Source: Nitrospirota bacterium (GTDB lineage: Bacteria; Nitrospirota; Thermodesulfovibrionia; Thermodesulfovibrionales; UBA1546). Taken from it: a stretch of 64,000 nucleotides of DNA. A model generated the notes under the pieces. That model did no database searches. It saw only the letters and a program-made list of their open reading frames with translations, and was not told the origin of the DNA. This document shows positions 6,276 through 64,000 of this stretch, in pieces. Position 1 is the first letter of the stretch. Every line of letters starts with the position of its first letter. The position numbers and the translations under genes are program-made. The stretch spans positions 4,003 through 68,002 of the forward strand of contig JACPZK010000004.1 in assembly GCA_016195565.1 (NCBI GenBank), in the 5' to 3' direction.

Positions 6276-6328
6276 TTCATTTCCATAAGTATGTTTTTTA
6301 TAATCATGATTGTGTAAGATAATATCTG

Positions 6329-7558: not shown

Positions 7559-7637
7559 CTCCTTGATGAAAATATATTTGATTTTCTGTATCATAAGGCT
7601 TGCCATTAGACAACAGGACGGAGGAAAAGGGGCGTAG

Positions 7638-8345: not shown

Positions 8346-8350
8346 AAATG

Positions 8351-8409
8351 GTGAATTTTCACTTGACAGCGCAGCCTTATACCTTTACACTTTGATATAT
8401 AGTGTAAAG
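8351..8409 (+). promoter_or_regulatory. candidate promoter/operator upstream of the exported-protein block
   Basis: Palindrome GTGAA-TT-TTCAC (8351-8362). TTGACA (8363-8368), 17-nt spacer, TACACT (8386-8391). 9-bp inverted repeat CTTTACACT/AGTGTAAAG (8383-8391 / 8401-8409) overlaps the -10. Confidence 0.35.
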
Positions 8410-8491
8410 ATGTCTTCCGGTCTCATTTTAATGGGTTAAGTTCTAAATTCTTGCAAAGATAAATAAAGTAAAAACAGGGAGGTATCGTCGA

Positions 8492-9661: not shown

Positions 9662-9702
9662 TTCATAAACTTACAGGCCTGATTTAATTAAGGGGGGATT
9701 GC

Positions 9703-10671
9703 ATGAGAAAAGTATTTATCAGTTTTCTGGTTGTTGCCATTATATGTATTAGTGCTTTTACATCCGAGGCGGCAAAGAAAAAAGTAGCGGTTCTGGATTT
9801 TGAGTACGGGACAATAAGGGACCGGTGGTGGCCCGGAGACTGGGATATAGGTAAAGGCATATCAGATATGATGGTAACGCAGCTTGTAAAAGACGGCACT
9901 TTTTCAGTGATAGAGAGAAAACAGATTGAAAAGGTAATCAGCGAGCAAAAACTCGGAGCCAGCGGCCTGGTTGATGTTTCAACTGCAGCTCAAATCGGTA
10001 AAATCCTTGGTGTTAAGTATGTGATTCTGGGAAGCATTACCCAGTTCGGCATTGATACTAAAAATATTGATACCGGCGGCTTTGGAAGGATGTTTGGGCT
10101 TGGAGCAGATGTAGGTGTATCAACTGCTGTTGCTACTGTATATATTGATGCAAGAATGATTGATACTACAACTGCTGAGATAGTTGCTGTAGCTGAGGGC
10201 AAGGCTTCGGAAAGCAAAAGCAATGTGAAAATTTTTGCAAGTGATCGGCATCGGGGATACGGCCACGTGGCAATCGGCAGTTCAGGATTTGATGGTACCA
10301 TTCTTGGACAGACCACGCGCAAGTGTGTAGAAGATGTAGTAAAGCAACTTTCAGGAAAGACGACCGGCGCGGGAACATCTGGAGGAGCAATAAAAACAAA
10401 GGTGGCTGATACTGATGCCGGGTCAAAGACAGTTTATATAGCCGCAGGCAGCGGCGAGGGGATAACAGTCGGCCAGACCTTGTATGTTGTTAAGGTAAAG
10501 AAAGAGATAAAGGATCCTGAAACAGGAGAGGTTATAAAAAGGGTGGTAGAGACAACGGCAGAGATGGAAGTGACCGAGGTTGACAATAAATCCGCAACTG
10601 CTACAATTGTAAAAGGAAACATAAATGACATAAAGATAGGAGACAATGTCAGTTCTACACCTTCACTTTAA
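9703..10671 (+). CDS. CsgG-family (curli assembly/transport component-like) exported protein
   Basis: Signal peptide. KKKVAVLDFEY..GKGISDMMVTQLVKDGTFSVIERKQIEKVISEQ..GVKYVILGSITQFG..GLGADVG..VYIDARMIDTTTAEIV matches the CsgG family pattern. An extra C-terminal beta-rich domain follows. Confidence 0.7.
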   Translation: MRKVFISFLVVAIICISAFTSEAAKKKVAVLDFEYGTIRDRWWPGDWDIGKGISDMMVTQLVKDGTFSVIERKQIEKVISEQKLGASGLVDVSTAAQIGKILGVKYVILGSITQFGIDTKNIDTGGFGRMFGLGADVGVSTAVATVYIDARMIDTTTAEIVAVAEGKASESKSNVKIFASDRHRGYGHVAIGSSGFDGTILGQTTRKCVEDVVKQLSGKTTGAGTSGGAIKTKVADTDAGSKTVYIAAGSGEGITVGQTLYVVKVKKEIKDPETGEVIKRVVETTAEMEVTEVDNKSATATIVKGNINDIKIGDNVSSTPSL

Positions 10672-10694
10672 AACAACAAAACAAAGGCATTACA

Positions 10695-10964
10695 ATGAAC
10701 AAAAATGATAAAGAGGAATTGACTATACTGAGAATGTTATCAATACTCGCATTGCTTTTATTAGCATCTGTCGCATGTGCGCCGCCAGCTATTAAGACCA
10801 CTGCCCTTATGCCTGCAAAGTTTCATGAAGCTGCACAGTTAAAGGAAGTGGCTGTATTGCCTTTTGAAGGTGAGAGGGGAAGAGAGTTTTCAGCTGAAAT
10901 TGAAGGAGTTCTGGCAGGCGTAAACATTGGTGATAAACAATATTTTTCTTTGGCAGATAGCTAA
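10695..10964 (+). CDS. short lipoprotein ORF, possibly a truncated CsgG/LpoB-like N-terminal fragment
   Basis: Lipobox (LLLASVAC). Contains the EVAVLPFEGERG motif shared with neighbouring genes but ends after 89 aa. Confidence 0.35.
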   Translation: MNKNDKEELTILRMLSILALLLLASVACAPPAIKTTALMPAKFHEAAQLKEVAVLPFEGERGREFSAEIEGVLAGVNIGDKQYFSLADS

Positions 10965-11142
10965 AAAACAGGAAAAATCGCCAGTTTAATTGACCTGAAA
11001 GGCGGTGTTTTTGTCGCTTTATAGAAACTTTTAAGGCGGAGGTGAATTTTACCTTTACATATATTGCTGTTAGTGGTAAATAGTAAGAAGAGACGATGCT
11101 AATGCTATTAATAACTTTAACGACAAAACGAAGGAGGTAGGT

Positions 11143-12354
11143 ATGAAAGGCTGTATGAGAGTTCTGTTTATGGTTTTTATTCTTGCGTTTGTTTCTTCGT
11201 GCGGGAAGCAGGTTGCTAAATGCACGGACCCGACCGACAATCCGTCTCACCACTATTTAATGGGGATGCAGGCGCTGGAGGAGAAAAAAATTGATGTTGC
11301 GCAGAGCAAGTTTGAAAGGGCTAATTTTTGCGATGAAAAGTTCTCTCCTGCCCATGACGGTCTTGCCATTGTTTCAGCTTACAAGACTAAACAACAGGCT
11401 GACGCAGCATTTAAAAAAGTAGAGACTGAAAAGGCGATGGAACACCTCAAAAAAGCAGGCAAGCTTGCGGAAAGCGCTGAGGATAAATTTGACCACCTTG
11501 TGGCAACGATGAGAGTATACAGCGCCATTAAACCAACAAAAGACTGGCTGAAGACAGCAGAGGACGCTTTCAGCGATATTCGCGATCTGAAGGTTGAAGA
11601 AAAGAAGCTGACTTATTATCAGGGCAAAGAGGCTGCGGATTATTTTATGGGCAAGGCATATCTTAATGCATTAGAGTTCAGGCAGGCAAGAGATAAGTTT
11701 GCCGATGTCCTCAATGCAAAGAGAGAAGGCAAATGGAATGAGAAGGCTGATAAGGCGCATAAGCGAGTAGACAAGATAGTCCGCGCTATGGCAGGCATTA
11801 CGGTAGGCGATGTCGGCAAGCAGATAGCTGTTAAAGATTCAGTCACAAGGGCAGACCTTGCGGCGCTTCTTATTGTTGAGATGAAACTTGACAAGCTTTT
11901 TGCAGGACGCATCCCGGTAAAATCACAGATTGACAAAATGAAGGCAGAGTTTACGCCGGCAGATGTGCTTAACCATCCATTTAAGGAAGAGGTGCTTACA
12001 ATAATGAAGTGGAAGGTAAGGGGGCTTGAGCCGAAGTTTGACGAGACTACGAAGGCATATCTCTTTAAACCGTCGGATGTTGTAAAAAGAGGCGAAATGG
12101 CATTGATACTTGAAGACGTATTAATTAAACTCACAGGCAAAGAGGAACTTGCCACTGCATTTTTCGGACAGGATACATCACCGTTTCCTGATGTGAGAAA
12201 AACATCGCCGTTCTATAATGCTGTTATGAATATGACAACAAAAGGTATTATGGAAGGCGAGCTTTCAGGCGAGTTCAGGATAGATGCTCCTGTTGACGGA
12301 GCAGAAGCTATTCTTGCAATGAGAGTTTTAAAGCAGAGGATGAACATTTATTAG
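11143..12354 (+). CDS. lipoprotein with TPR-like N-terminal part and SLH (S-layer homology)-like C-terminal repeats
   Basis: Lipobox (AFVSSC|GK). The C-terminus has three SLH-like units (VTRADLAALLIVEM; VVKRGEMALILEDV; FPDVRKTSPFYNAVMNMTTKGIMEG..PVDGAEAILAMRVL). Confidence 0.55.
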   Translation: MKGCMRVLFMVFILAFVSSCGKQVAKCTDPTDNPSHHYLMGMQALEEKKIDVAQSKFERANFCDEKFSPAHDGLAIVSAYKTKQQADAAFKKVETEKAMEHLKKAGKLAESAEDKFDHLVATMRVYSAIKPTKDWLKTAEDAFSDIRDLKVEEKKLTYYQGKEAADYFMGKAYLNALEFRQARDKFADVLNAKREGKWNEKADKAHKRVDKIVRAMAGITVGDVGKQIAVKDSVTRADLAALLIVEMKLDKLFAGRIPVKSQIDKMKAEFTPADVLNHPFKEEVLTIMKWKVRGLEPKFDETTKAYLFKPSDVVKRGEMALILEDVLIKLTGKEELATAFFGQDTSPFPDVRKTSPFYNAVMNMTTKGIMEGELSGEFRIDAPVDGAEAILAMRVLKQRMNIY

Positions 12355-12361
12355 CATTAAA

Positions 12362-12428
12362 TTAAAAGTTGGAAGTTGAAAATGAAAAGTTTTAAAACTC
12401 TTAATTCTAAACTTTTAACTCTTAACTT
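12362..12428. repeat. AAAGT-unit dispersed repeat in inverted configuration (intergenic)
   Basis: ttaaaagttggaagttgaaaatgaaaagtt is followed by its imperfect reverse complement aactcttaattctaaacttttaactcttaactt. It could fold as a long hairpin after gene 11143..12354. Confidence 0.8.
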
Positions 12429-12446
12429 AAATAAAAGGAGGACGAT

Positions 12447-13457
12447 ATGAAACATAAGAGATGGCTTATCGGAGCGTTGATTTTACTCATTGGACTTGGA
12501 GGCATAGCTGTTGCCCAGCAATACCCGATGGATCAAATGGGAGGACAGCAGCCGCCTCAACAGCCTCCCCAGTCAGGCACTGTTCAGGTTGACGCAAGTT
12601 TTACTGCTGCAAATGAGTGGCTGAGCAAGAATAATCTTTCTTTAACCGGCAGCGCTGCAGGCAGGGATGACAATGCTGCTTTCAGTCAGGAAATGATCTT
12701 GTTTTACGGCGAGGCGTATGGCAATCCTGCGCATACTAATATCGCGCAAAGGGGAGGCATGGCTAAAAGGGCAGCAGTAGTTGTCGCTCAGAGATCGCTT
12801 GCAGAATATATGAACGGCTTTGCGATTGTCGGCGATACGCTGGTTAAAGACGGCGTAGCACAGTATGATGTAATCAGGTCTGCTGTTGCTGGGTTCATAA
12901 AAGGCATGCAGGTAGTATTTCAGGATTACAGCCCAGAGAAAGATACTGCCATTGCCATAATCAAGGTAGGAATGCACGGGCCGGATGGTTTTGCAACCAG
13001 CGTGTATAAAAAGATGTTTGTGTCCGAAAAAAAGATGGACCCCCAATTCGTAAAGGCTATTCATGAGGTAGACGGCAAACCTGCACCTAACTTTAAGGCA
13101 GCGGTAGTGCCTATTGAAAGTTACGATGGACTTATAATTGACGCTACTGAGCAGAACTTCAGGCCTGCCCTGATAAACAGGGTGTTCACTCCCAAGGGAG
13201 AACTGCTTTACGATCCATCAAAGATAAGCCAGAAAGTGCTTGTTGAGCAGGGATGCGGCGAATATACAAACAGTGTGGACAAGGCAAAGGCTGCGCTTGA
13301 TTCAAGAGGCGTAAAAAACCCTCTTATTATTAAGGCAGTAGGCACGGTTAGCGTGTCTGACCTTCAGGTCTCCGATGATGACGCAGTGAGTATCTTTTCG
13401 GCAAACCAAAAGAAAGGTTTTTTTGCAAGCGCGAAGGTAGCATTTGTGTTGAAATAA
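12447..13457 (+). CDS. exported protein, LPP20-like central region (tentative)
   Basis: Signal peptide. Q/P-rich linker. MAKRAAVVVAQRSLAEYMNGFAIVGDTLVKDG resembles LPP20-type domains. Confidence 0.4.
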   Translation: MKHKRWLIGALILLIGLGGIAVAQQYPMDQMGGQQPPQQPPQSGTVQVDASFTAANEWLSKNNLSLTGSAAGRDDNAAFSQEMILFYGEAYGNPAHTNIAQRGGMAKRAAVVVAQRSLAEYMNGFAIVGDTLVKDGVAQYDVIRSAVAGFIKGMQVVFQDYSPEKDTAIAIIKVGMHGPDGFATSVYKKMFVSEKKMDPQFVKAIHEVDGKPAPNFKAAVVPIESYDGLIIDATEQNFRPALINRVFTPKGELLYDPSKISQKVLVEQGCGEYTNSVDKAKAALDSRGVKNPLIIKAVGTVSVSDLQVSDDDAVSIFSANQKKGFFASAKVAFVLK

Positions 13458-13504
13458 ATAACGTTAAAGAGTCAACCCCGAGCTGATCGGGGCATGGGTT
13501 TAAG

Positions 13505-13541
13505 CATGAGTGACAGACGATTAGAGCGTCTGTCACTCATG
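13505..13541. terminator. perfect 15-bp-stem hairpin (possible terminator or RNA element)
   Basis: CATGAGTGACAGACG (13505-13519), 7-nt loop, CGTCTGTCACTCATG (13527-13541). Preceded by a smaller hairpin CCCCGA..TCGGGG (13477-13493). No T-tract follows. Confidence 0.4.
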
Positions 13542-13575
13542 ACGTTATGGGGATTCTTTAGGAGGTAAAAGGCTG

Positions 13576-15240
13576 ATGGCTATCTTAATAATATTCCTAT
13601 GCATGGTTGCAGTTTTTTCTCCCCTGCCGTGTTCAGCCAAGACCCTTATTCTTGACGGAGATCTGGAAAGCGGGATAAAGATGTCCCAGCAGATCAGCTT
13701 TGACGTCCAGCAGAGCGTAAAATCATTAACTTTTAAATTTGCTCTTCCGACTGAATTTTCCAATAAGGCAACGTCACAGGGTGTTGACAGCCTGAATATA
13801 AAATTTACGCCTGAACCGGTATCAGTTACAGATGATATAGATAAATTCGGCAACAGGTTTAAAAAAGTCAGGTGGGAGAACCTTAATCAGCGCGTCAATA
13901 TTACAATATCATTCAATGCCCGCATAAAAGCGGAACTGCGTTCAATGGAGAGCACCGCCCCGTTCCCTTTAAACGGAATATCAGGCAATGACGCTGTATT
14001 TCTCAAGCCGACACAGATGGTGCAAAGCGACAATGAAGAAATAATGGCCCTCTCAAGGAGGCTTACAGGCAATGCAAGGACCACTCACGATGCCGTGAAC
14101 GCAATACTTAACTGGGTAGCTGACAATGTGAAGTACACTTACAACCCTCCTCAATACGATGCGATACACACGATGAAAACAGGCAAGGGCAATTGCCAGA
14201 ACTTTGCGCATCTCTCAATGGCATTGCTAAGAGCCGCAGGCATTCCCTCCAGAATTGTCGGCGGCATCAGCCTTAAACGCCAGTGGAAGGTCCCTGTTGA
14301 AAACGGTTATCTTGTGCAGGATATGGGGCAGGGCGGACATGCATGGATGGAGATATTCTTTCCTGATTTAGGATGGCTTTCCTATGATCCCCAGCAGTCA
14401 AGGCAGTTTACTTCAACAAGGCATATCAAACAGACGCACGGACTGGATTCAAAGGATATTAATGACTCATGGTCAGCGTCTCCCTATCTGCCGAAATACA
14501 GCGAGGACATAGAAGCTGTATTTAATAACGACAACATCAATATAAAACTAAGGTCTTCAAAGAGCGCTCCCGTATCTTATATAATGAGCAATAATCTCAT
14601 GGCAAAAACAATCGCCCCTGAAAAACCACTGCCGCCGATTCCTAAACCTGAACCGCCTGTGACAAGGCCGGAACCTCCGGTTAAGCCTTCCCCTAAAAAG
14701 AAAGGCATTATCGAATTCGGCAATACGGACTTTCCAACACTTGTTGATGCCTATCAAACTGTTGGAAATGTTGCTACAAGGATTCTTGATAAAGAGACTG
14801 CCGAGTATGTAACATCACGGTATATTTATGCACAGGCGTTTACCGTGACTGATACGATGACAATGTATGAAGTGTCTCTTGCCATGCGAAAATTCGGAGG
14901 CGACGGCACGCTCTATATTGATATTGTTAAGGATGAAAATGGGAAGCCAGGTTTTGCCGGAGAAAGATCGCTGCCTGTTTTCCTTGGAAACATAAAGTTC
15001 CGTCCGGGTTATTACTGGATAGATTTTGTATTTGCTAAAGCTAATGAGCCGTCGCCTGTTCTTAAGCCGGGCAAATACTGGATAATACTCAGGCATTCAG
15101 GAGAGGCGATAGTAAACTGGTTTTATATTCCCGGCAATGCTTATGGGGACGGAGACGATACGCGTTCAACTGTTAAGGGCTATAAATGGGAAGACCTGCT
15201 GAATTACGACTTCGTGTTTAAGGTGAGGGGGAAAATATAA
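13576..15240 (+). CDS. exported transglutaminase-like cysteine protease superfamily protein
   Basis: Signal peptide. Transglutaminase core motif GKGNCQNFAHLSMALLRAAGIPSRIV ... GGHAWMEIFFPDLGWLSYDP (Cys-His-Asp). Pro-rich linker PEKPLPPIPKPEPPVTRPEPPVKP. Confidence 0.8.
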   Translation: MAILIIFLCMVAVFSPLPCSAKTLILDGDLESGIKMSQQISFDVQQSVKSLTFKFALPTEFSNKATSQGVDSLNIKFTPEPVSVTDDIDKFGNRFKKVRWENLNQRVNITISFNARIKAELRSMESTAPFPLNGISGNDAVFLKPTQMVQSDNEEIMALSRRLTGNARTTHDAVNAILNWVADNVKYTYNPPQYDAIHTMKTGKGNCQNFAHLSMALLRAAGIPSRIVGGISLKRQWKVPVENGYLVQDMGQGGHAWMEIFFPDLGWLSYDPQQSRQFTSTRHIKQTHGLDSKDINDSWSASPYLPKYSEDIEAVFNNDNINIKLRSSKSAPVSYIMSNNLMAKTIAPEKPLPPIPKPEPPVTRPEPPVKPSPKKKGIIEFGNTDFPTLVDAYQTVGNVATRILDKETAEYVTSRYIYAQAFTVTDTMTMYEVSLAMRKFGGDGTLYIDIVKDENGKPGFAGERSLPVFLGNIKFRPGYYWIDFVFAKANEPSPVLKPGKYWIILRHSGEAIVNWFYIPGNAYGDGDDTRSTVKGYKWEDLLNYDFVFKVRGKI

Positions 15241-15282
15241 TGAAACAATCATGTCTCAAGGAGAGACAAAGAGCAATGAAAG

Positions 15283-15420
15283 TGTCATTGCGAGGAGCGA
15301 GATTCCTCACTTGTCATTGCGAGACTCACAAAGTGAGACGAAGCAATCTCAAAACAGGTTCGGAACAGGCTCCGCAGTCTTTAGATGCGAGATTGCCACG
15401 CCTTCGGCTCGCAATGACAA
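15283..15420. repeat. MITE/REP-like element with GTCATTGCGAG terminal inverted repeats
   Basis: GTCATTGCGAG at 15283 and again at 15313. The complement CTCGCAATGAC is near 15407-15417. An internal hairpin CTCAC-AAA-GTGAG is present. A related copy lies at 39218-39309. Confidence 0.7.
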
Positions 15421-15425
15421 GTTAG

Positions 15426-15890
15426 ATGTATTTTCAGATGAAAATACTCAGTATACTGGCTGTTTTTGTTTTTTTCATGCTTTCGGCAGACGCCCTGTCT
15501 GCTGAGAAGGCGCAGAAACAAAACCCGCCCCTGTCCAAAGAAGAAATTCAGAAGTTAAGAGATATAGCAGTGATTATCGCGGAAGAAATAACAAGAAGAA
15601 ACATAAAGTCTGTTACAATAATAGATTTTAAAGACATTGAAGGCAATCCCTCAAAAAGAGGGAAAACAGTTGCTGCTGAATTCCGAAAGCAGATGGAGGC
15701 TTTAGGCAAGGCAAATTTTACGGTTAAGGACAGCGGCGGAGGCGCTTTGGTTACGGGAATGTTTCTTCCGTTTAAGGGCGGCGATAAATGGAGGCTGGAC
15801 ATAAAAGTCATAGAAGCTTTGTCGCCTGACAACAGGCTTATTACCTCTTACAGCGGGTTTTTCAGAAAAACAAAAGGGGTGAAAAAATGA
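15426..15890 (+). CDS. exported protein, unknown function (FlgO/TolB-N-like pattern, tentative)
   Basis: Signal peptide. IKSVTIIDFKDIEGNPSKRGKTVAAEFRKQMEAL resembles the N-terminal module seen in neighbouring CsgG/DUF799-like proteins. Confidence 0.4.
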   Translation: MYFQMKILSILAVFVFFMLSADALSAEKAQKQNPPLSKEEIQKLRDIAVIIAEEITRRNIKSVTIIDFKDIEGNPSKRGKTVAAEFRKQMEALGKANFTVKDSGGGALVTGMFLPFKGGDKWRLDIKVIEALSPDNRLITSYSGFFRKTKGVKK

Positions 15891-18172
15891 AAAATATATT
15901 GTCAGTCTCATCAATCCTATTTGTTTTAATATTCCTTTCATCATGCGCGCCGACACAGGAGATAAAAAAAGACACGCCTGAAGCACAGGCTGTTGCAGAA
16001 GAAGAACTTCCAAGAATCGTTGCAGTCCTGCCATTTCAGAACGATACAGAGGAAAGAGGCATAGCAAATCAGGTCAGGAAAGCATTTTACAACCATTTCA
16101 GTTCCAAACCTTACAGAGATATTGAGCCCTCAATCCTTGATGAAAAAATCGTGCATCTGGAAAAAGCTACAGGCAAAACTGTTCTTGAACTGAAACCTGC
16201 TGAGGTATGCCAATCGCTCGGATGTGACGGGCTGGTATATGGCAGGATCACTGACTTTAAAAAAGTTTACGCTGCTGTTTATTCCCAACTCGGTGTGGAA
16301 GCAGAGGTATGGATAGTGAATACAAAAACAGGGAAAGAGGTATTAAGGTTAAAGGACGCTGTGAGATACCACGAAGGCGGAGTTCCACTATCTCCGCTTG
16401 GAATAATAATGACTGCTGTGTCTACAGCTATGAATCTCAGGGAGATTCAGCAAGTAAGGCTGGTAAGTGAGCTTGCTTACAAGTTAAATGAAAAGATACC
16501 TTCTCCGTCAGGAATGGCCGCTGAGGACAGGCCTGTAATTAAGGAAGTGCTGACTAATATAAAAGAAGGGCCGTTCGGAAAAGGCAAGATAATCAGGGCA
16601 GGGCTTGAAGGCGACAAGTCAATGGTGGCAATGTTTGACATAGGCAATTACAAAAAGAACATTCCGATGAAAGAGGTAAAACCCGGCATCTATACCGGAG
16701 AATACCTTGTGCTGCCCGGAGATAACATAAAAGACATGCCCATCGTTGCTACGCTGAAAAAACCCGGCGGATATGAAAGCCAGTGGATGGATGTAAGCGG
16801 TTTTGTGACGATTGATACCACTCCGCCCCCTCAGGTCAAGGGCGTGAAGGCGAAAGGATTTCACGACAGGATTGAGCTTGCATGGGAGCCGTTAAAGGAC
16901 ATATCCGACCTCGCAGGTTATAAGGTCTTAAGAAGCGAGCAGCCTCTAAGCGGATATGCTGAGATAGCTAAAGTAGAAGTCAGTATTTTTGAAGATAAAA
17001 CAGCCAAGCCTGATAAGATTTATTATTACAGGGTTTCGGCATTTGACCTGACAGGCAATGAATCAGACCTGCAGGACCCTCTCAGGGCCTCTCTCGTATC
17101 CAAAGAACCTGTCCCGCTTTCAGGCGAGCTTAAAAAAGATACTGTTCTTTCGGGAAATTATATTGTGAAAAACAGCCTCACAGTCCCCAAGGGTTTATCG
17201 CTGACGATAGAGCCCGAAACGCTGATTATGTTTGATGAGAATGCATCTCTCAATGTTTATGGCAAAATGATTGCAAGCGGAAAGGAATCTCCTGTTGAAC
17301 TTATACCCGCAGGAGATAAAAAGTGGAAGGGCATAACCGCTGATGGAGCCAATATCGCGGTCAGCGGTTTCCGCATTAAAGGCGCAGCAACTGCAATGCT
17401 TTTGCGAAACACAGAGGGCTCAATGGAAAACGGTGTAATCACAGGCAGCAATATCGGAGTTTCTGTCTCGGGCACACCCTCTGTTGCAATGAAAGGCTTA
17501 ACAATCTCAGGCAATAAAACAGGGATTGAGCTTCAACAGACAGATGCAAAGGTTCTTCAGGCAAACATCTTTCAGAATGCCGAAGGCATCCGCATAAAGG
17601 GATTTTCAGGAGAGATAAAAGACAATAACATCGTTGACAATGAGAAGAACATCTCATCCGAATCAAACATAAAAATTGGCGCAAACTATCTCGGCTCCAT
17701 AAACGTAGATGAGATGAGAATAAAAGGAATCAGCTTAACAAAGACGTATGACAATAAAGTTCCTGACGGCAAGATTGTGGATGCTATTTTCAACCCCTAT
17801 GCGCTTCTAAACAATGAGGAACGCCAGAAAAAGGCAACGGAATTTCTTATTGAGGCAGGCAGCTATTTCAGGCAGAGGAATTACGGCAAGGCAGTAACGC
17901 TTTTTGAAGAAGCATTAAAGGCATTCCCGACTGCTGATACATATTATTACATTGCGCTTTGTTATCAGGAGATGAAGGAAGATGAGAAGGCTCTGAAATA
18001 TTTAAAAGAAGGCGTTGAGAAGTTCCCGAAAGATTCCACGCTCCAAAAATCCCTCGGCCTTATGTATTACCAGAAGGGCAGGGATGCAGAGGCCAAGAAG
18101 GCATTTGAAGAAGTCCTGCGGCTGAGCCCCGAAGACAGACAGGTTAAATTCATGCTTGAGAGGATGAAGTAA
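15887..18172 (+). CDS. multidomain lipoprotein: DUF799/GNA1162-like N-terminus, FN3-like, beta-helix-like repeats, C-terminal TPR
   Basis: ATGA overlap with the upstream gene. Lipobox (IFLSSC|AP). RIVAVLPFQNDTEERGIANQVRKAFYNHF..GCDGLVYGRITDF. FN3-like segment (GYKVLRSEQPLSGY..YYYRVSAFDLTGNES). TPR at the end (YYYIALCYQEMKEDEKALKYLKEG). Confidence 0.55.
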   Translation: MKNILSVSSILFVLIFLSSCAPTQEIKKDTPEAQAVAEEELPRIVAVLPFQNDTEERGIANQVRKAFYNHFSSKPYRDIEPSILDEKIVHLEKATGKTVLELKPAEVCQSLGCDGLVYGRITDFKKVYAAVYSQLGVEAEVWIVNTKTGKEVLRLKDAVRYHEGGVPLSPLGIIMTAVSTAMNLREIQQVRLVSELAYKLNEKIPSPSGMAAEDRPVIKEVLTNIKEGPFGKGKIIRAGLEGDKSMVAMFDIGNYKKNIPMKEVKPGIYTGEYLVLPGDNIKDMPIVATLKKPGGYESQWMDVSGFVTIDTTPPPQVKGVKAKGFHDRIELAWEPLKDISDLAGYKVLRSEQPLSGYAEIAKVEVSIFEDKTAKPDKIYYYRVSAFDLTGNESDLQDPLRASLVSKEPVPLSGELKKDTVLSGNYIVKNSLTVPKGLSLTIEPETLIMFDENASLNVYGKMIASGKESPVELIPAGDKKWKGITADGANIAVSGFRIKGAATAMLLRNTEGSMENGVITGSNIGVSVSGTPSVAMKGLTISGNKTGIELQQTDAKVLQANIFQNAEGIRIKGFSGEIKDNNIVDNEKNISSESNIKIGANYLGSINVDEMRIKGISLTKTYDNKVPDGKIVDAIFNPYALLNNEERQKKATEFLIEAGSYFRQRNYGKAVTLFEEALKAFPTADTYYYIALCYQEMKEDEKALKYLKEGVEKFPKDSTLQKSLGLMYYQKGRDAEAKKAFEEVLRLSPEDRQVKFMLERMK

Positions 18173-47490: not shown

Positions 47491-48417
47491 TTACGCCCTG
47501 GGATGATGCTCTGTATATACCTTCTTGATTCTGTCGGTTGAGACCTTAGTATATATCTGCGTTGTGGATATGTCCGAATGGCCGAGCATTTTCTGAACAG
47601 AGCGCAAATCTGCTCCGCCTTCGAGCAGGTGTGTTGCAAAGGAATGCCGCAAAGAATGAGGCGAAAGGTTGATGCCAATCTGTTTTCCGTATTTCTTAAT
47701 TGTCTGCCAGAAACGCTGCCTGGTCATTGCGCTGCCCCTGTTTGTGACAAAGAGATAGTCAGACTGCTTTTTCTTTAAGATGGCAGGCCTGAGTTCTTTT
47801 GTATATTTTTTAATTTTATCCGAAGCCCTTGAGTTTATCGGAACAAGCCTTTCCTTTGAGCCCTTGCCCATAATTCTCAGGAAGCCGGCTTCAAGGTTTA
47901 CATTATTATGCTTAAGAGAAACAAGTTCGCTGACACGGAGGCCCGAAGAATAAAGAATCTCCAGCATTGCCGTGTCCCTTAAAAATGTAGCGCTGCCTGT
48001 CCTGCTGTCAAGGAGAGATATGACGTCTTCAAGGCTTAGAGCTTTTGGAAGCCTTTCCCACTTTTTGGGCGTCTGAAGATTTTCTGAAGGATCTTCTTTA
48101 ATGATTTTTTCTATTATCATATATCTGCAAATGCCGCGCAGGGAGGATATAAATCTGCAGATACTGGTAGTTGAATATCCCTTGTCCTTCACATCACTCA
48201 GGAAATCTAAAATATCGGCTTTTGAGAAGGAGTCAAGCTCCTTGTTTTTTGAAGTCAGAAGCTTTTGAAACAACCCAATGTCTCTTGAATACGCCTCAAC
48301 CGTGTTTTGAGACAGCCCTCTTTCCACGGATAGGTAGATAAGGAACTCTTTTAATATCTTCACAAATACTGTCCCTCCGGTTTTTACCTCTCGGGCCTTA
48401 TGATAAATCCTTTTCAT
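47491..48417 (-). CDS. XerC/XerD-type tyrosine site-specific recombinase
   Basis: N-terminal SAM-like domain (LSQNTVEAYSRDIGLF). Catalytic region ...HSLRHSFATHLLEGGADLRSVQKMLGHSDISTTQIYTKV (R..HxxR..Y). Confidence 0.85.
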   Translation of the reverse strand: MKRIYHKAREVKTGGTVFVKILKEFLIYLSVERGLSQNTVEAYSRDIGLFQKLLTSKNKELDSFSKADILDFLSDVKDKGYSTTSICRFISSLRGICRYMIIEKIIKEDPSENLQTPKKWERLPKALSLEDVISLLDSRTGSATFLRDTAMLEILYSSGLRVSELVSLKHNNVNLEAGFLRIMGKGSKERLVPINSRASDKIKKYTKELRPAILKKKQSDYLFVTNRGSAMTRQRFWQTIKKYGKQIGINLSPHSLRHSFATHLLEGGADLRSVQKMLGHSDISTTQIYTKVSTDRIKKVYTEHHPRA

Positions 48418-53962: not shown

Positions 53963-54160
53963 TAAAATTTCCTGTTAAAGGACTATCTTTTATTCGATTC
54001 TCTTAATCTCTACTGCATGAAAATCCATACAAAAGCCCCTTTAAGGTTAAGGCGCCTATCACAATATTCTAATTTAAAATCAAATACTTAAAGGATACTA
54101 TTTCTTTTGGCGTGCCTCTTGCTTATAAAGAAAAAACGGCTTAACTTAACATTAATACAA

Positions 54161-54274
54161 GGGAAAGGAATGTCAAAAAAAGCACCTGTCTTTTTTGACA
54201 GGCGACAATGAATCTCAGGATATGCTATAAGAAAGGATATCAACCCTTATTTTAAGGGTACATGAGATTCTTGA
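54161..54274 (+). repeat. 114-bp direct repeat, copy A
   Basis: Identical to 57569-57682 except for 3 substitutions. Contains the CCTGTC-T6-GACAGG hairpin and the ACCCTTA-TTT-TAAGGGT hairpin. Confidence 0.9.
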
Positions 54275-57552: not shown

Positions 57553-57568
57553 TCTGATTTGATAGGCA

Positions 57569-57682
57569 GGGAAAGGAATGTCAAAAAAAGCACCTGTCAT
57601 TTTTGACAGGTGACGATGAATCTCAGGATATGCTATAAGAAAGGATATCAACCCTTATTTTAAGGGTACATGAGATTCTTGA
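57569..57682 (+). repeat. 114-bp direct repeat, copy B
   Basis: See 54161-54274. Here the hairpin is perfect (CACCTGTCA-TTTT-TGACAGGTG, 57591-57612). Confidence 0.9.
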
Positions 57683-57711
57683 CAATAAATAAGCTTATAA
57701 AGGTTAGCTTA

Positions 57712-58598
57712 ATGGAGGAAGATATGAGAAACGCTGATGAAAGGCGAGGCATGGGATGGCTCCCTGATTATCCTGATTTTCGGGATTATACAGAGGAGCA
57801 TGAAAATGTTAGTAAGATTATTACAGCAACAGGGGTTACAAAAAAGGCCATAAGCCTCCCCTCATCTGCGGATCTAAGGGCATGGTGCTCGCCTGTAGAG
57901 GATCAGGGCTCTCTTGGTTCCTGCACTGCCAATGCAGGGGTCGGTATGGTGGAATATTATGAGAAGAGGGCATTCGGCAGATATATTGATGCCTCACGAC
58001 TTTTCCTGTATAAAGCAACAAGGAACCTTCTTCACTGGACAGGTGATACGGGTGCATTTCTAAGAAGCACAATGGGCGCACTGGTTTTGTTTGGAGTCCC
58101 GCCAGAAGAATACTGGCCTTATAAGATAGCTGATTTTGATAATGAACCGCCTGCATTCTGCTACGCCTTTGCACAAAACTACCAGACCGTAAAATATTAC
58201 AGGCATGACCCACCTGCAACACCAAAGGATCTCTTATTAAACCGTATAAAAACCTACTTGCAGCAGGCCACCCCTCCATGTTTGGTTTTACAGTGTATAG
58301 TTCAATTGCACAGGCAGGCACGACAGGAAAAATCCCATATCCATGCAAAGGGGAAAAGATAGAGGGCGGGCATGCCATTGTTGCAGTCGGCTATGACGAT
58401 AAGATGAAGATTAAAAACACAGGACTGTGTGGAGTGGAGACAACTGGAGCGCTTCTCATAAGAAACTCCTGGGGCATGGGATGGGGAGACGCCGGCTACG
58501 GCTGGCTGCCTTATGAATATATCCTTAAAGGCCTTGCCGAAGACTTCTGGTCAGTATTGAAGAAGGAGTGGGTGGATACGGGGGAGTTTAAGGCGTAA
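57712..58598 (+). pseudogene. papain-family (C1) cysteine peptidase split by a -1 frameshift
   Basis: ORF 57670..58362 carries GWLPDYPDFRDY and the Gln/Cys motif VEDQGSLGSCTANAG. ORF 58278..58598 carries GGHAIVAVGYDD (His) and IRNSWG (Asn). The frames rejoin as IKTYL|AAGHPSMFGF if one nt is restored near 58260. Confidence 0.8.
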
Positions 58599-60388: not shown

Positions 60389-60574
60389 ATGCCTAAAGGT
60401 GAAAAACCGACGTACAAAATTGCAAAGTACGACAGAGCTAATAAGTGTTCGTGTGATTGTGAATGTCAATTACCGGTTACCGTTACTGTCCTCTATAGCG
60501 GGAAAATAAGAACTCCAAAAGGTCTGTCAACTTTAAAAGCAGAGACGCCGGACATTACGATCTTAAGCGAGTAG
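60389..60574 (+). CDS. 61-aa Cys-rich peptide, candidate RiPP precursor
   Basis: AAAGGAGG lies 8 nt before the ATG. MPKGEKPTYKIAKYDRANKCSCDCECQLPVTVTVLYSGKIRTPKGLSTLKAETPDITILSE. The CSCDCEC patch is at 60446-60466. The stop lies 64 nt upstream of a radical SAM/SPASM gene carrying an RRE-like domain. Confidence 0.55.
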   Translation: MPKGEKPTYKIAKYDRANKCSCDCECQLPVTVTVLYSGKIRTPKGLSTLKAETPDITILSE

Positions 60575-60638: not shown

Positions 60639-61955
60639 ATGGAATCATTATTGTTACGCCGCGAGCCGTTCGGTGGAGTATTAGCGGAGCGAGAAGGAAC
60701 AAAAGTAAAGTTTCTTAATCACACAGGGTTTGAAATAACCTATGGGATTGCCAACGGCTGGTCGGAAGATGAAATAATCAATCACATCAAATCAAAATTC
60801 GATGTATCAAATATGCCTTTAGTCAAAAACGACATCAAAAAATTTCGCAGGATGGTCTCGAATATAAAAGATTGGGATTCCGGTGAAAGCCTTTGGAAAG
60901 ACCCGTCAGAAAATAAGGAATCCTCTCCTATTCCGGCACTATCCGCACCATTGGATTTATACTGGGAAGTTACCAAGCGATGCAATCTTTACTGTCGTCA
61001 TTGTTATAACGAATCAGGCAGTAGAGATTATGAGCCGAGCATGGAACAGATGCGTTCTGTCGTAAATGAGCTAAGTTCAACAAAACTGAGAAGCATTGCG
61101 ATATCGGGCGGTGAACCTTTGATGCGGAAAGACTTGCGGACGATTATCGGATGGCTTCGTCCCCTGGCGACAAATCTTGTATTAGCCACTAACGGAACTT
61201 TGATAGACGAACAGAGCGTTGCATGGATGGGAGAAATGATCAATGAAGTAAATTTAAGCCTAGACGCAGGCAATAAATCAGCATACGAACAATTTAGAGG
61301 TCGAAGGGGAACCTTTGATAAATGTCTTCGAGGACTGGATCTTTTAGTAGAACAAAAAGTCCCTGTTATAATCCAGACTACTATATCCAGATTCAACATA
61401 GATTCTCTCAAAGAGATTGCAACTTTGGCAATAGAGAGAGGCGCTACGGCCTGGATTGTACGGCTGCCCGTGTTCAGTGGTAGGGCTGCCCGAAATGAAG
61501 GTGATTTTCTCAGCCGGAATGAATTAATTGAAAAAGAGCCGCTCCTGTCCGAAATCAGATTACAATACCAATCAAAATTCGCAGACTTACAATTGGGGGT
61601 CAACTTCATGTGGAGTTATCAGGAACCTTATACTTATGTTCAGATAGAGGACAGGGCGATATCATGTTCCGCAGGAACTGTGGGCGTGCTTTTGACTGCA
61701 GAGGGTACATTAGCGCCTTGTCCCTTATTTTCGGGGACGGACTTCAAGTCCGACGCAGTCTGGAATGGTAACTTTCTTAAAGAATGGAAAACGGCTCGAT
61801 GCATGCAGACTATGCGCTCCCTTCGTTTAAATCAGATTGGGCAATGTTTCCATTGCGCACACTTCAAAGTAAAATGCAGCGCTGGATGCAGGGCCAAGTC
61901 TTATTTGAGTGGAGATTTATATTCAACAGATCCAGACTGCGGTTACTTGAACTAA
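60639..61955 (+). CDS. radical SAM/SPASM peptide-maturase-like enzyme with N-terminal PqqD-like (RRE) domain
   Basis: N-terminus RREPFGGVLAEREGTKVKFLNHTGFEI..GWSEDEIINHI is PqqD/RRE-like. CNLYCRHCY is the CX3CX2C motif. SPASM: CSAGTVGVLLTAEGTLAPC ... CFHCAHFKVKCSAGC. Confidence 0.85.
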   Translation: MESLLLRREPFGGVLAEREGTKVKFLNHTGFEITYGIANGWSEDEIINHIKSKFDVSNMPLVKNDIKKFRRMVSNIKDWDSGESLWKDPSENKESSPIPALSAPLDLYWEVTKRCNLYCRHCYNESGSRDYEPSMEQMRSVVNELSSTKLRSIAISGGEPLMRKDLRTIIGWLRPLATNLVLATNGTLIDEQSVAWMGEMINEVNLSLDAGNKSAYEQFRGRRGTFDKCLRGLDLLVEQKVPVIIQTTISRFNIDSLKEIATLAIERGATAWIVRLPVFSGRAARNEGDFLSRNELIEKEPLLSEIRLQYQSKFADLQLGVNFMWSYQEPYTYVQIEDRAISCSAGTVGVLLTAEGTLAPCPLFSGTDFKSDAVWNGNFLKEWKTARCMQTMRSLRLNQIGQCFHCAHFKVKCSAGCRAKSYLSGDLYSTDPDCGYLN

Positions 61956-62025
61956 AGACAATTTAAAAGGGCGATTAATCGACTATGAGCCAAAAAATAG
62001 GAACAGCGACCATTAATAAGAAACT

Positions 62026-62090
62026 GCCCGAACCGGCAGATAACAGAGTGCTTGAGTTTAACTCAAAGGCTACGCCCTTCTCAAACATTC
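62026..62090 (+). repeat. conserved hairpin repeat downstream of radical SAM gene 1 (copy 1)
   Basis: GCCCGAACCGGCAGATAACAGAGTGCTTGAGTTTAAC...CTCAAACATTC. Arms at 62045-62056 and 62080-62090 (one G-U, one mismatch). Homologous to 63923-63989. Confidence 0.8.
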
Positions 62091-62207
62091 GAACCGTTGT
62101 TGCAATTGGGGGCAGAGAGGGAGGAGGTGATAAATTTATTCCGTTATGGCGCTTTTTTGCTGTGTCATGAAGTAATCTGAATCAATTTGATTTCAAAGGA
62201 GGGCAAC

Positions 62208-62792
62208 ATGCAAAAAGATATACAGAAAAAGAAATGGACATCTCCCAAGAACGTTTATCGGACAAAATGGACAACGCGGTTAGATGCAAAAGTATCGGCT
62301 TCACCGGGAAAGCGGGTTGAAGTTAATCCATTAAAAGTTCTCCACCGCTTTGATGGAGGAATGGTATACGAGAGTGCCGGTAGAAAATTCTTGCTTACTG
62401 AAAACATTTTTGGTTCTTATCCCTTTCTCTTAGTTTTTGAGCTATCGGGAAAGGAAATTGAGGTAGAATCAACTTCTTTTCATGCCGTGCCAGAACGCAT
62501 GCTTAAAAGTATCGCGCCAGCGTGCGAAAAAATAGCCCTTAGCGCTAAGCTACCCGAATCTTTGCATAATGTGGAAGTGGACATAACGCCCATGTTAAGC
62601 CAAGTCGTCAAGCTGCCAAGTGGTGTGGAATTATCAAAAGCTATCCTGAAGCTTGGCAAAGGGCCTGAGGTGGCATGTGACTGCGATGTGGATGGGCCTT
62701 GCGGGTACTGCTGTGACACGTGCGATTGTGATACATGCAAGATTGAGGATATCGGAATAGATCCTATGGAAATAGTGATCAGGGGGCGATAG
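62208..62792 (+). CDS. 194-aa protein with C-terminal Cys/Asp-rich patch, candidate long-leader precursor or substrate
   Basis: ATG at 62208 after AAGGAGGG. The C-terminus reads ...EVACDCDVDGPCGYCCDTCDCDTCKIEDIGIDPMEIVIRGR, with 8 Cys and 6 Asp in 21 residues (62676-62738). The stop overlaps the GTG start of the next radical SAM gene. Confidence 0.55.
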   Translation: MQKDIQKKKWTSPKNVYRTKWTTRLDAKVSASPGKRVEVNPLKVLHRFDGGMVYESAGRKFLLTENIFGSYPFLLVFELSGKEIEVESTSFHAVPERMLKSIAPACEKIALSAKLPESLHNVEVDITPMLSQVVKLPSGVELSKAILKLGKGPEVACDCDVDGPCGYCCDTCDCDTCKIEDIGIDPMEIVIRGR

Positions 62793-63886
62793 TGGTCGAC
62801 TCATTGTTGACAGCGTCAGTACCAAACAAGCTCACTGTAATTTTGACACATAGATGCAATCAACGATGCGAGTTCTGTTTTGATGCATCTAATGTGATGT
62901 GCGCATCGAGAGGGGCCGATATGTCAATTGGGACAATGGAATGTATCGTAAAAATGTTGCGAAATTCTCTCCCTGAAAACATGCCATTCAATATCACCCT
63001 TTCCGGTGGAGAACCCACGCTTCATCCAAAGTTCCTAACTATGGTTGAAATTGTATCAGATGCCGGCTTCCCAGTGACCATTTTGACAAATGGTCAGCGC
63101 CTTGCCGATGTGAGCTTTATGAAAAAGGTGATGAAATTCAACCTATGGAACTTTCAATTTTCAATTGAAGGTGCTTCATCGGAGATTCATGACAAGAGGG
63201 TCGGTTGTAGAGGGGCATTCAAACGAACTGTTAAAGCTATCGAGAATGCGCGTGATTTTGGGGTTCGTTTTATCACAAATAGCACGATGACTAAGGCCTC
63301 TGTGAGAGAAATGTATTCTCTTATCGATTTTCTTGATCACCTTGGTGTCCCCAAAATGAACATCGGTAATACTCTTCCCGAATGTGCTGGTCACAACTGG
63401 GCTGTTATGATGCAGTATCCCACAGTTGTTGATATTGCAGAACATCTTACATTGTACGCGCTCACTAAACGAATCAGTTTTTCCTTCATAACGCCTTTAC
63501 CGATATGCCTAAAGGACAAACGTATAATTAGCAATCCATCCGTATGCTCAGCTGGAAGGGTTTCCATTGTGGCGGATGCTGACGGGACTCTGCGCCCTTG
63601 TTCTGTCTGTACCTCTGCAAAAGATGAAGCGCTTCGTATTCAGGATGTCAAAGATCTTAAGGAGATTTATCGCCGAATGGATTCAATAGTCTCGGATTTT
63701 GTCAAGATCGACATCCCGGATGAATGCCGAAAATGCGAGCGCATGAGTGAGTGCCGTGCAGCATGCCCTCTATATTGGAAGGCTAAAGGTGTGGCGCGAC
63801 CATCTCAGTGGTGTCAAGACACATCGGTTCTTGCATGTGAATATGATTCCCAAATGCCACAAAGTGCCGGACAATATTGCACTTGA
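62792..63886 (+). CDS. radical SAM/SPASM peptide-maturase-like enzyme (no N-terminal RRE)
   Basis: GTG start overlapping the upstream stop (taGTG). CNQRCEFCF is the CX3CX2C motif. SPASM: CSAGRVSIVADADGTLRPCSVC ... CRKCERMSECRAAC. Confidence 0.85.
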   Translation: MVDSLLTASVPNKLTVILTHRCNQRCEFCFDASNVMCASRGADMSIGTMECIVKMLRNSLPENMPFNITLSGGEPTLHPKFLTMVEIVSDAGFPVTILTNGQRLADVSFMKKVMKFNLWNFQFSIEGASSEIHDKRVGCRGAFKRTVKAIENARDFGVRFITNSTMTKASVREMYSLIDFLDHLGVPKMNIGNTLPECAGHNWAVMMQYPTVVDIAEHLTLYALTKRISFSFITPLPICLKDKRIISNPSVCSAGRVSIVADADGTLRPCSVCTSAKDEALRIQDVKDLKEIYRRMDSIVSDFVKIDIPDECRKCERMSECRAACPLYWKAKGVARPSQWCQDTSVLACEYDSQMPQSAGQYCT

Positions 63887-63922
63887 ACCTGAAGAGCGTG
63901 AAGAGGAGTCTAACAAAATAGT

Positions 63923-63989
63923 GCCCCAACGGCAGATAACAGAGTGCTTGAGTTTAACACCCAAAGGCTTAGCCCTTCTCAAGCACTCT
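63923..63989 (+). repeat. conserved hairpin repeat downstream of radical SAM gene 2 (copy 2)
   Basis: Perfect 12-bp stem AGAGTGCTTGAG (63941-63952) / CTCAAGCACTCT (63978-63989) with a 25-nt loop. Homologous to 62026-62090. Confidence 0.85.
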
Positions 63990-64000
63990 AAACGTTAGCC

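Follow-up and report, generated by a model that had tools for sequence, protein, structure and literature searches.

The window analysed here, i.e. the whole stretch of 64,000 nt, belongs to contig JACPZK010000004.1 of a Nitrospirota bacterium. Towards its end it carries a two-gene unit, module 2, which consists of gene A (62208..62792, + strand), coding for a 194-aa putative substrate protein of an orphan family, and gene B (62792..63886, + strand), coding for a 364-aa radical SAM/SPASM enzyme. We propose, as a reading with an even chance of being right, that A and B constitute a self-contained, horizontally mobile enzyme-substrate pair in which the tail of A would probably be cross-linked. 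Pairs of radical SAM/SPASM enzymes and precursors, maturases that work independently of the recognition element (RRE) of ribosomally synthesised peptides with post-translational modifications (RiPPs), long structured leaders, and protein substrates are each already known separately. New here is their combination, that is, an orphan family with a 150-residue leader of unmatched predicted fold and an invariant core, encoded in a two-gene unit flanked by attC-like elements.

The recurrence of the pair is more than chance. In all eight independent loci compared (L001, L003, L006, L008, L009, L011, L012 and the window, which equals L013), B follows A directly and on the same strand. Where both genes are called intact they overlap or lie at most 13 nt apart, with the exception of L006, for which the gene call gives 110 nt. 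Frameshifts, which are possibly sequencing errors, break B in L008 and L012 and also A in L012. An all-against-all comparison of the stop-to-stop open reading frames (ORFs) of the eight loci yielded no third shared gene, and no conserved RRE protein, protease or transporter was found among them. In the seven other contexts the pair stands alone, without module 1, the precursor-enzyme pair that precedes it in the window. Both families are small. A word-indexed search of 5.8 billion proteins retrieved 26 homologues of A (36-97% identity, 135-271 aa, mostly 183-227 aa), an exhaustive profile search of 1.84 billion cluster representatives returned 13 clusters only, and a species-level scan with one genome for each of 185,579 species identified two carriers, a deltaproteobacterial and an acidobacterial metagenome-assembled genome. 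B has ~33 close homologues with 48-99% identity; below these, the score falls from 387 bits (48% identity) to 80 bits, the level of generic radical SAM proteins with ~27% identity. By sequence, A and B each form a closed clade.

The surroundings of the cassette vary strongly from locus to locus. They include a conjugative element with genes for a coupling protein, a relaxase and ArdC, a PRTRC cassette that carries AbiEii and a zeta toxin, a contractile injection system (eCIS) and ordinary metabolic genes. In two otherwise unrelated contexts genes of the AhpC/TSA-redoxin type are located within ~2.5 kb of the cassette (12945-13925 in L001/L002 and 5483-6091 in L006), which may reflect a redox link or coincidence. 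An unannotated protein of ~990 aa is encoded directly after the cassette in L003-L005 (10858-13839), and one of this size, too, ~5 kb downstream in L001 (16781-19750), with faint SMC/AAA matches; the proteins from the L001 and L003-L005 loci show no mutual similarity in the all-against-all comparison.

Gene B starts with a GTG codon (62792-62794) that shares one base with the TAG stop codon of A (62790-62792; taGTG), just as the sequence-only reading of this DNA had noticed. Since an in-frame stop lies just upstream of the start of B, a longer N-terminus is impossible. The homologues of B (334-379 aa) all begin at the same place, which in B is 21 residues ahead of the cluster motif and ~10 residues ahead of the first core strand. 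The cluster motif itself, CNQRCEFC (residues 22-29, 62855..62878, + strand), represents the CX3CX2C pattern for the radical SAM [4Fe-4S] cluster. Its C22, C26 and C29 are invariant, as is the SGGEP motif across the family, and the radical SAM core is recognised by PF04055 with 69.9 bits against a cut-off of 29.5. The SPASM region (residues 239-325, 63506..63766, + strand) contains seven invariant Cys (C239, C252, C270, C312, C315, C321 and C325) in the arrangements CX12GX4C and CX2CX5CX3C. Although the Pfam SPASM model gives 16.9 bits and thus stays under its cut-off of 21.5, the Cys pattern and the fold do fit SPASM.

Profile alignments of the B family place residues 7-325 of B on residues 93-417 of CteB and residues 10-188 on residues 108-277 of SkfB. 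Residue 7-10 of B meets residues 93-124 of the RRE-bearing enzymes CteB, SkfB and SuiB, as well as positions 101-111 of the AlbA and StsB family models. The AlphaFold2 (AF2) model of B (pLDDT 83, pTM 0.84) has no extra lobe and superposes on SuiB (TMq 0.68), anSME, PqqE, SkfB and CteB, with E-values between 1e-10 and 1e-13 for the fold matches to SuiB, anSME, PqqE and CteB. In the comparison with anSME, TMq and TMt are both ~0.66-0.67 and both chains are covered end to end, whereas the ~100-residue N-terminal RRE lobes of SuiB and CteB are left unmatched (TMt 0.54-0.59). By sequence and predicted structure, B is an enzyme without RRE. The earlier claim that it starts at the core fold, with no PqqD-like domain, is thereby borne out both by the alignment to CteB/SkfB and by the anSME-like model.

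Among solved proteins, the thioether-forming CteB is the best full-length profile match of B (E 8e-14), and SkfB, likewise thioether-forming, is the best overall profile match (E 4e-15). The best single-sequence PDB match is PqqE. Within NCBIfam, the mycofactocin maturase MftC (TIGR03962) ranks first with 79 bits against a cut-off of 265, HxsC reaches 78 against 268 and PapB (NF047865) 69.6 against 340; the SCIFF maturase model is outside the best 25 families. As judged from these scores, none of the named families includes B, and its chemistry is not discriminated by the matches. A defence-system reading was rejected, for PADLOC shows only a generic radical SAM core likeness of B to viperins.

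Gene A extends from an ATG at 62208 to the TAG mentioned above. As the sequence-only reading had it, a 194-aa protein carries its clustered Cys near the C-terminus behind a region of ~155 residues. To be exact, 156 residues precede the patch, and eight of the nine Cys are found within residues 157-177; the ninth, C101, is isolated and not invariant. The protein starts with a basic N-terminal tail (residues 1-33, 62208..62306, + strand) that is predicted to be disordered (pLDDT ~36). In the family alignment this tail contains a near-invariant Y-R-x-x-W at positions 17-21 (Y17, R18, W21; "YRxRW"). There follows an alpha/beta domain (residues 34-152, 62307..62663, + strand), for which AF2 confidently predicts a four-strand beta-meander followed by helix, strand, helix and strand; the structure prediction suggested earlier for the N-terminal region of A has thus given a confident alpha/beta fold over residues ~35-152. 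The pLDDT is ~90 over residues 40-150, at a mean of 69 for the whole model and a pTM of 0.61. Invariant positions of the domain are Y54, E65, P72, F73, P95, H120, E123 and T127. A short variable linker connects it to the Cys/Asp patch CDCDVDGPCGYCCDTCDCDTC (residues 157-177, 62676..62738, + strand), which is predicted to be disordered and is conserved across the family. The last residues, 178-194 (62739..62789, + strand), form a variable C-tail (KIEDIGIDPMEIVIRGR). Throughout the family A ends either in ...CNSCYxCC or with an extension such as KIEDIGIDPMEIVIRGR; the CNSCYxCC subfamily is devoid of the C-tail.

Conservation along A is highest in the patch (CDCDVDGPCGYCCDTCDC). Mean pairwise identity drops from 92% here to 44% in the domain and ~31% in the two tails. 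Nearly all codons of the patch differ between loci, mostly at synonymous third positions, while the residues are fixed. This combination means that the constraint acts on the protein, and the patch is subject to strong purifying selection at that level. The tails of the family contain 8-10 Cys and 4-9 Asp. Four distant relatives keep the N-terminal domain. One of them also keeps most of the patch, whereas the other three have different Cys/Asp-rich patches (SCDICDGTCTHC..., SCTVCDNCDCF and CFCDQCDCWSC).

We could not connect A with any described family. It has no Pfam, NCBIfam or PADLOC match, and when all 27 members were compared with Pfam and NCBIfam at E <= 10, only single chance-level matches of two distant members appeared. 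Neither A nor its isolated tail matched the NCBIfam peptide models at E <= 10. The domain profile found nothing better than E > 0.5 among PDB sequences, and Foldseek searches with the domain fold gave no match (E > 0.3 in the PDB, E > 0.04 in BFVD). The label '6-pyruvoyl-tetrahydropterin synthase' that JGI attaches to the A homologue P0004 was rejected, because it lacks Pfam, NCBIfam, PDB-sequence and fold support. A has no signal peptide and no ferredoxin-type CxxCxxCxxxCP motif, its linker contains no conserved double-glycine or other cleavage motif, and a literature search for GPCGYCC found no paper containing the motif. The combination by which the sequence-only reading would have been refuted, an N-terminal domain from a known, unrelated family and an unconserved Cys patch, was not observed: the domain falls into no known family, and no segment of A is better conserved than the patch.

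Module 2 is bracketed by two copies of a palindrome. The upstream copy (62022..62099, + strand) is imperfect, spans ~80 nt and is built of the box GGCAGATAAC and, after it, the arm AGAGTGCTTGAG and the imperfect arm CTCAAACATTC with a loop in between. The downstream copy (63918..64000, + strand) is truncated by the window end. In L013, the same locus extended by ~10 kb past this point, the copy is complete (6266-6348); it has perfect 12-bp arms and ends with AAAC-GTTAGCC. A groundwater metagenome contig from a related organism (L018) served as a comparison locus without module 2. There, a C1 peptidase gene is followed by two unknown genes, a C13 peptidase gene, the 61-aa gene of module 1, the module 1 enzyme gene (rSAM1) and, directly after this, a gene for a C39_2-like lipoprotein. 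In L018 the gap between the last two genes holds one ~80-nt copy of the palindrome (9258-9334), whereas the window has two copies, with A and B between them. The flanks to the left of the first copy and to the right of the second are identical to L018, the latter leading into the C39_2-like lipoprotein gene. By this sequence comparison, module 2 is a ~1.9-kb insertion into a pre-existing cluster. The inserted unit opens with a 5' leader (62100..62207, + strand), the start of which (TTGCAATTGGGGGCAGAGAGGGAGGAGG) resembles what comes after the GTTA box where other cassettes begin, and which provides a ribosome-binding site, AAGGAGG, at 62196-62202.

Further copies of the palindrome exist in L019 (6134-6190) and L009 (~2098-2110 and 3950-3972). 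In L009 the cassette sits in an unrelated context, with GTTATCTGC ~135 nt ahead of gene A and GGCAGATAAC 45 nt past gene B. L019 and L020 have the element 33 nt upstream of their copy of the 61-aa precursor gene of module 1. A scan of metagenome contigs with GCCCNNAMCGGCAGATAACAG gave at least 120 matching contigs (L021-L140), from which 100 unique copies were compared with shuffled controls. The general layout is GGCAGATAAC, a 12-nt arm, a loop, a complementary arm, an unpaired spacer of 4 nt and GTTA plus variable bases, and the full box on the right, GTTATCTGCC, is the reverse complement of GGCAGATAAC on the left. Among the copies the inner 12-nt arm occurs in 58 different sequences. In 31 of the 100 unique copies the arms are nevertheless complementary, in the Watson-Crick sense, at 10 or more of the 12 positions, as opposed to 1 of 100 shuffled ones, and in 24 of these 31 GTTA or ATTA follows exactly 4 nt past the right arm. 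The left flank of the element is unusually conserved (GCCCGCAACGG...). In a subset of the metagenome copies the right half is replaced by a -10-like sequence of the TGTTATAAT type. The ORFs that come after the element, whose translations were read by eye, are diverse; many are of the toxin-antitoxin type, and a serine recombinase and a radical SAM enzyme also occur. Two of the ~120 contigs listed encode C-terminal fragments resembling integron integrases (best matches to TIGR02249: 96 and 91 bits over ~65 residues, with ...SPLD at the end).

These features recall integron cassettes. The attC sites of integrons have inverted AAC/GTT boxes and unpaired features, and their structure is conserved while the sequence varies (PMC5027507). 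Correspondingly, the element is a palindrome with inverted ...ATAAC / GTTAT... boxes, variable complementary arms and an unpaired spacer (PMC5027507), the presence/absence polymorphism runs exactly between two copies, and the ORFs downstream are varied, with many toxin-antitoxin genes among them. The element differs in that the 5' box AGATAAC fits RYYYAAC only in part, and in that the window offers neither IntI nor an array. No integron integrase is encoded in the window, its sole tyrosine recombinase being XerD (47491-48417, 365 bits), which is followed by metabolic genes. A strict scan of the window and L013 for more attC-like sites found none, so that two copies stand in 74 kb. An integron platform in the window was rejected for these two reasons. 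Two-gene integron cassettes are uncommon. Other readings of the palindrome were discarded as well: as an RNA it has no Rfam match at E <= 1, as a terminator it lacks a T-run, and for a sigma54 promoter the GG/GC spacing, checked by eye, is wrong. Terminator-like sites are not in excess in the region (6 in a consensus scan versus a shuffle mean of 3.7). On sequence grounds, it is likely that the flanking element is attC-like and that module 2 is an integron-type cassette.

From these data we infer the enzyme-substrate relation of A and B, the part of A that is recognised, the chemistry, and the fate and role of the product as follows. The typical target of a SPASM enzyme is a peptide or protein whose gene lies next to that of the enzyme (PMC10114670). 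A has several substrate-like features, namely the precursor-first gene order, the apparent translational coupling, the disordered Cys-rich tail and the strict co-occurrence with B, and we consider it a likely substrate of the enzyme. As B lacks an RRE and the pair has no conserved third gene, recognition has to be a matter of A and B alone. Recognition that is independent of an RRE and resides in A is the favoured hypothesis. Since no more than ~10 residues of B precede the first core strand, the contribution of the N-terminal part of A would probably be decisive. The absence of an RRE is in itself not unusual, as RRE-independent radical SAM maturases such as DarE exist (PMC10705402). We envisage that A is a cytoplasmic protein of ~21 kDa whose N-terminal part, i.e. 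the YRxRW tail, the alpha/beta domain or both, docks on B, and that this docking replaces the pairing of leader peptide and RRE. The tail is an equally good candidate contact as the folded domain; in proteusin leaders the disordered part made the contact and the rigid part was dispensable (PMC10858898). The idea of a built-in recognition or chaperone domain, raised from the sequence alone, is compatible with the data and draws indirect support from the conservation and confident predicted fold of the domain and from its constant association with an RRE-less enzyme in a cassette without further genes. The analogy to NHLP/Nif11 leaders that went with it does not extend to homology.

B, presumably a three-cluster radical SAM/SPASM enzyme, would then abstract H atoms within the disordered patch CDCDVDGPCGYCCDTCDC. 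Most probably it would link Cys sulfurs to side-chain or backbone carbons, giving thioethers of the sacti- or ranthipeptide type with Asp as a likely partner, and the outcome would be a rigid polycyclic knot on A. The Cys/Asp composition, which resembles that of the PapB and QhpD substrates, together with the precedents of PapB, QhpD and NxxcB, argues for thioethers (PMC9413430, PMC10114670), while the SkfB and CteB matches agree only weakly. PapB cross-links Cys/Asp motifs (PMC9413430). Provided that A is the substrate, thioether chemistry is thus slightly favoured over other outcomes. As the patch is invariant, A has a cytoplasmic character and no protease or exporter accompanies the pair, the product is more likely to stay on the carrier domain or to be trimmed by host proteases, and it would serve one conserved function; a small conserved product is an alternative, and a diversifying secreted antibiotic is less likely. 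Again on the premise that A is modified by B, retention on the protein is somewhat the better guess. The earlier suggestion of a protein-level modification instead of a small RiPP is accordingly plausible and slightly favoured in view of the missing conserved protease or exporter, the missing signal peptide and the invariant core.

Several points weigh against this proposal. The invariance of the presumed core is contrary to what RiPPs usually show and would suit a metal or Fe-S site no less, and the CxC and CC motifs recall metallothioneins. For the N-terminal domain, the invariant H120, E123, E65 and Y54, all of them polar, could indicate a function of its own instead of docking. A gene for a C39_2-like peptidase follows the cassette behind the second palindrome, which makes cleavage possible at this locus. 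As to the enzyme, every curated family score of B is far under its cut-off, and its likeness to thioether formers is barely above that to PqqE, BlsE and anSME.

Among characterised systems, PapB-PapA (freyrasin) and CteB-CteA (thermocellin) share with the pair a radical SAM/SPASM gene right after a Cys-rich precursor gene and a Cys/Asp-rich tract in the substrate, like the motifs that PapB cross-links (PMC9413430). They differ by the N-terminal RRE of the enzymes, which B lacks, and by precursors of ~45 residues in place of the 194-aa A with its folded domain. Systems of this class are defined by links from Cys sulfur to a non-alpha carbon of Asp, Glu, Thr or Asn; of A, whose cross-links are putative, only the composition fits. 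The nearest precedent for a retained product is QhpD-QhpC, in which a SPASM enzyme puts Cys-to-Asp/Glu thioethers into a lasting protein, the gamma subunit of quinohemoprotein amine dehydrogenase (PMC10114670). However, the QhpC operon also encodes dehydrogenase subunits, a subtilisin-like protease and a flavoenzyme (PMC7876137), and the examined loci have no such genes next to the pair. Like B, anSME is a compact radical SAM and SPASM protein of the same length without RRE, and it acts on Cys in a protein substrate (PMC10114670). Its sequence similarity to B is low (E 3e-7). The anSME motif C/S-x-P/A-x-R, which occurs in sulfatases encoded elsewhere, is absent from A. Proteusin/NHLP and Nif11 leaders likewise place long N-terminal rigid and disordered parts ahead of a C-terminal core, and enzymes can take such structured long-leader proteins as substrates (PMC10858898). 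In contrast to them, A has a longer leader (156 aa) with no homology and an unmatched fold, and an invariant core, whereas proteusin cores vary. DarE, finally, is a radical SAM/SPASM RiPP enzyme that binds its precursor DarA (darobactin) without an RRE, yet it uses an N-terminal extension of ~60 residues for this purpose (PMC10705402), compared with ~10 residues in B. DarA is a short peptide, and the DarE chemistry consists of ether and C-C links on Trp.

The alternative that survives best, although we regard it as unlikely, is that A is a metal- or Fe-S-binding protein. Its tail would then supply ligands, and A would act as a cluster or electron donor or as a metallocofactor scaffold for B, or as a stand-alone determinant of metal or redox stress. 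A patch that is invariant to 92% and has alternating CxCxC and CC motifs is what a ligand sphere would look like, the invariant H120, E123 and E65 could complete a metal site, and both the peroxiredoxin/redoxin genes near the cassette in L001/L002 and L006 and the character as mobile cargo would suit such a role. However, neither a metallothionein nor a ferredoxin or Fe-S family was matched at E <= 10, and the CxxCxxCxxxCP motif is missing. Asp-rich Cys tracts, moreover, are typical of thioether substrates and atypical of metallothioneins. SPASM enzymes characteristically modify peptides or proteins encoded adjacently (PMC10114670), and no other conserved candidate substrate is present near B. 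A reading that unites both views, in which a novel carrier domain holds a Cys/Asp tail stitched into a metal-binding or redox-active polythioether knot, i.e. a protein-borne cofactor or metal cage spread across phyla as a two-gene integron-type cassette, is similarly doubtful.

Quite improbable, in our view, is a role of the pair in the synthesis of a small redox cofactor of the PQQ or mycofactocin kind, with B cross-linking around the invariant G-Y-C and host enzymes excising the product from A. Cofactor precursors typically have a modified segment that does not vary, and the best NCBIfam match of B is MftC and its best single-sequence PDB match PqqE. Yet the MftC score of 79 compares with a cut-off of 265 and other families score alike, and among the genes conserved with the pair there is neither an MftB- or PqqD-like chaperone nor a peptidase or tailoring enzyme. 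The Tyr is internal, whereas mycofactocin chemistry requires a C-terminal one, a folded carrier of 150 residues is unlike PqqA or MftA, and a core cofactor does not have so rare, mobile and patchy a distribution. The segment VDGPCGY of A (residues 161-167, 62690-62708) can be likened to the C-terminal end of MftA, IDGxCGVY, which is probably a coincidence.

A conventional secreted RiPP with a very long leader, whose tail is cleaved off by the C39_2-like peptidase and exported as an antimicrobial or signal, is no less improbable: a gene for such a C39_2/C70-like cysteine peptidase does lie 218 nt downstream of B (L013 6452-7072), preceded by the same type of palindrome as gene A, in a region that also encodes C1 and C13 peptidases, but it pre-exists without module 2 in L018, an insertion polymorphism that weakens any functional link of module 2 to it, its product begins with a lipoprotein-type signal (MLKRLSLFLVFSSFLIGMVGC) and hence is located outside the cytoplasm while a signal peptide is missing from A, the seven other contexts show neither a peptidase nor a transporter going with the pair, the linker has no cleavage motif, and the core is invariant and not diversifying.

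The enzyme-substrate pair thus remains the reading that we prefer, and A and B are a good experimental lead with a putative mechanism and function. If A is modified by B, radical SAM/SPASM maturation would extend beyond short leader-plus-core peptides that an RRE reads, to a small protein that has its own recognition part and an invariant core. The two-gene set would be a compact system for studies of RRE-independent recognition, and a new Cys/Asp scaffold with multiple cross-links could come out of it. Genome mining based on RREs or on short ORFs would miss the A-B family. The attC-like setting suggests that, among uncultured bacteria of groundwater and sediment, modules for peptide or protein modification are passed around as integron-type cassettes; in a limited literature search we found no paper on such modules as integron-type cassettes.

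Module 1, into whose surroundings the cassette was apparently inserted, consists of a 61-aa precursor (60389..60574) with a central CSCDCEC and four homologues of 74-89% identity, and of a radical SAM/SPASM enzyme (60639..61955) with an N-terminal extension of ~100 aa. The sequence-only reading had ascribed a PqqD-like domain to this enzyme. While the extension is real, its PqqD match is weak (E 0.032, 15 bits) and stays under the Pfam cut-off of 23.4. Another of its suggestions, that the RRE of enzyme 1 serves both modules, is refuted, as the pair stands alone in seven contexts, module 1 stands alone in L018, and the two enzymes are 22% identical. In view of this low identity a common origin of the two modules was rejected, too, and the likenesses of CSCDCEC to the patch and of TYKIAKY to YRxRW are too short to serve as evidence for one. 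In the module 1 peptides an invariant C-x-C-x-C-E-C in the middle of the peptide is followed by ~35 conserved residues, i.e. the core is not C-terminal. In L019/L020 the peptide is part of a cluster with at least six radical SAM or B12-radical SAM genes.

Beyond the window end, the 10 kb of L013 at 6452-16234 encode the C39_2/C70-like peptidase and a run of secreted or lipoprotein-like proteins without family match, one of them Cys-rich and 551 aa long. Further on come a PLD-like protein, an ORF of 58 aa and another radical SAM gene (658 aa by gene call), which the end of the locus truncates. Upstream of module 1, the papain-family (C1) peptidase of the window is split into two overlapping ORFs (57670-58362, 230 aa, and 58278-58598, 106 aa), whereas its L018 counterpart is a single ORF of 291 aa. 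The split is due to a frameshift, which indicates either a pseudogene or a sequencing error. The window also contains a direct repeat of 115 nt (54160-54274 and 57568-57682; 97% identical) that holds a palindrome of its own, TGTCAAAAAAAGCACCTGTC(T/A)TTTTTGACA. The repeat runs into the start codons of two + strand ORFs beginning with MRFL..., one of which is the C1-peptidase gene at 57670.

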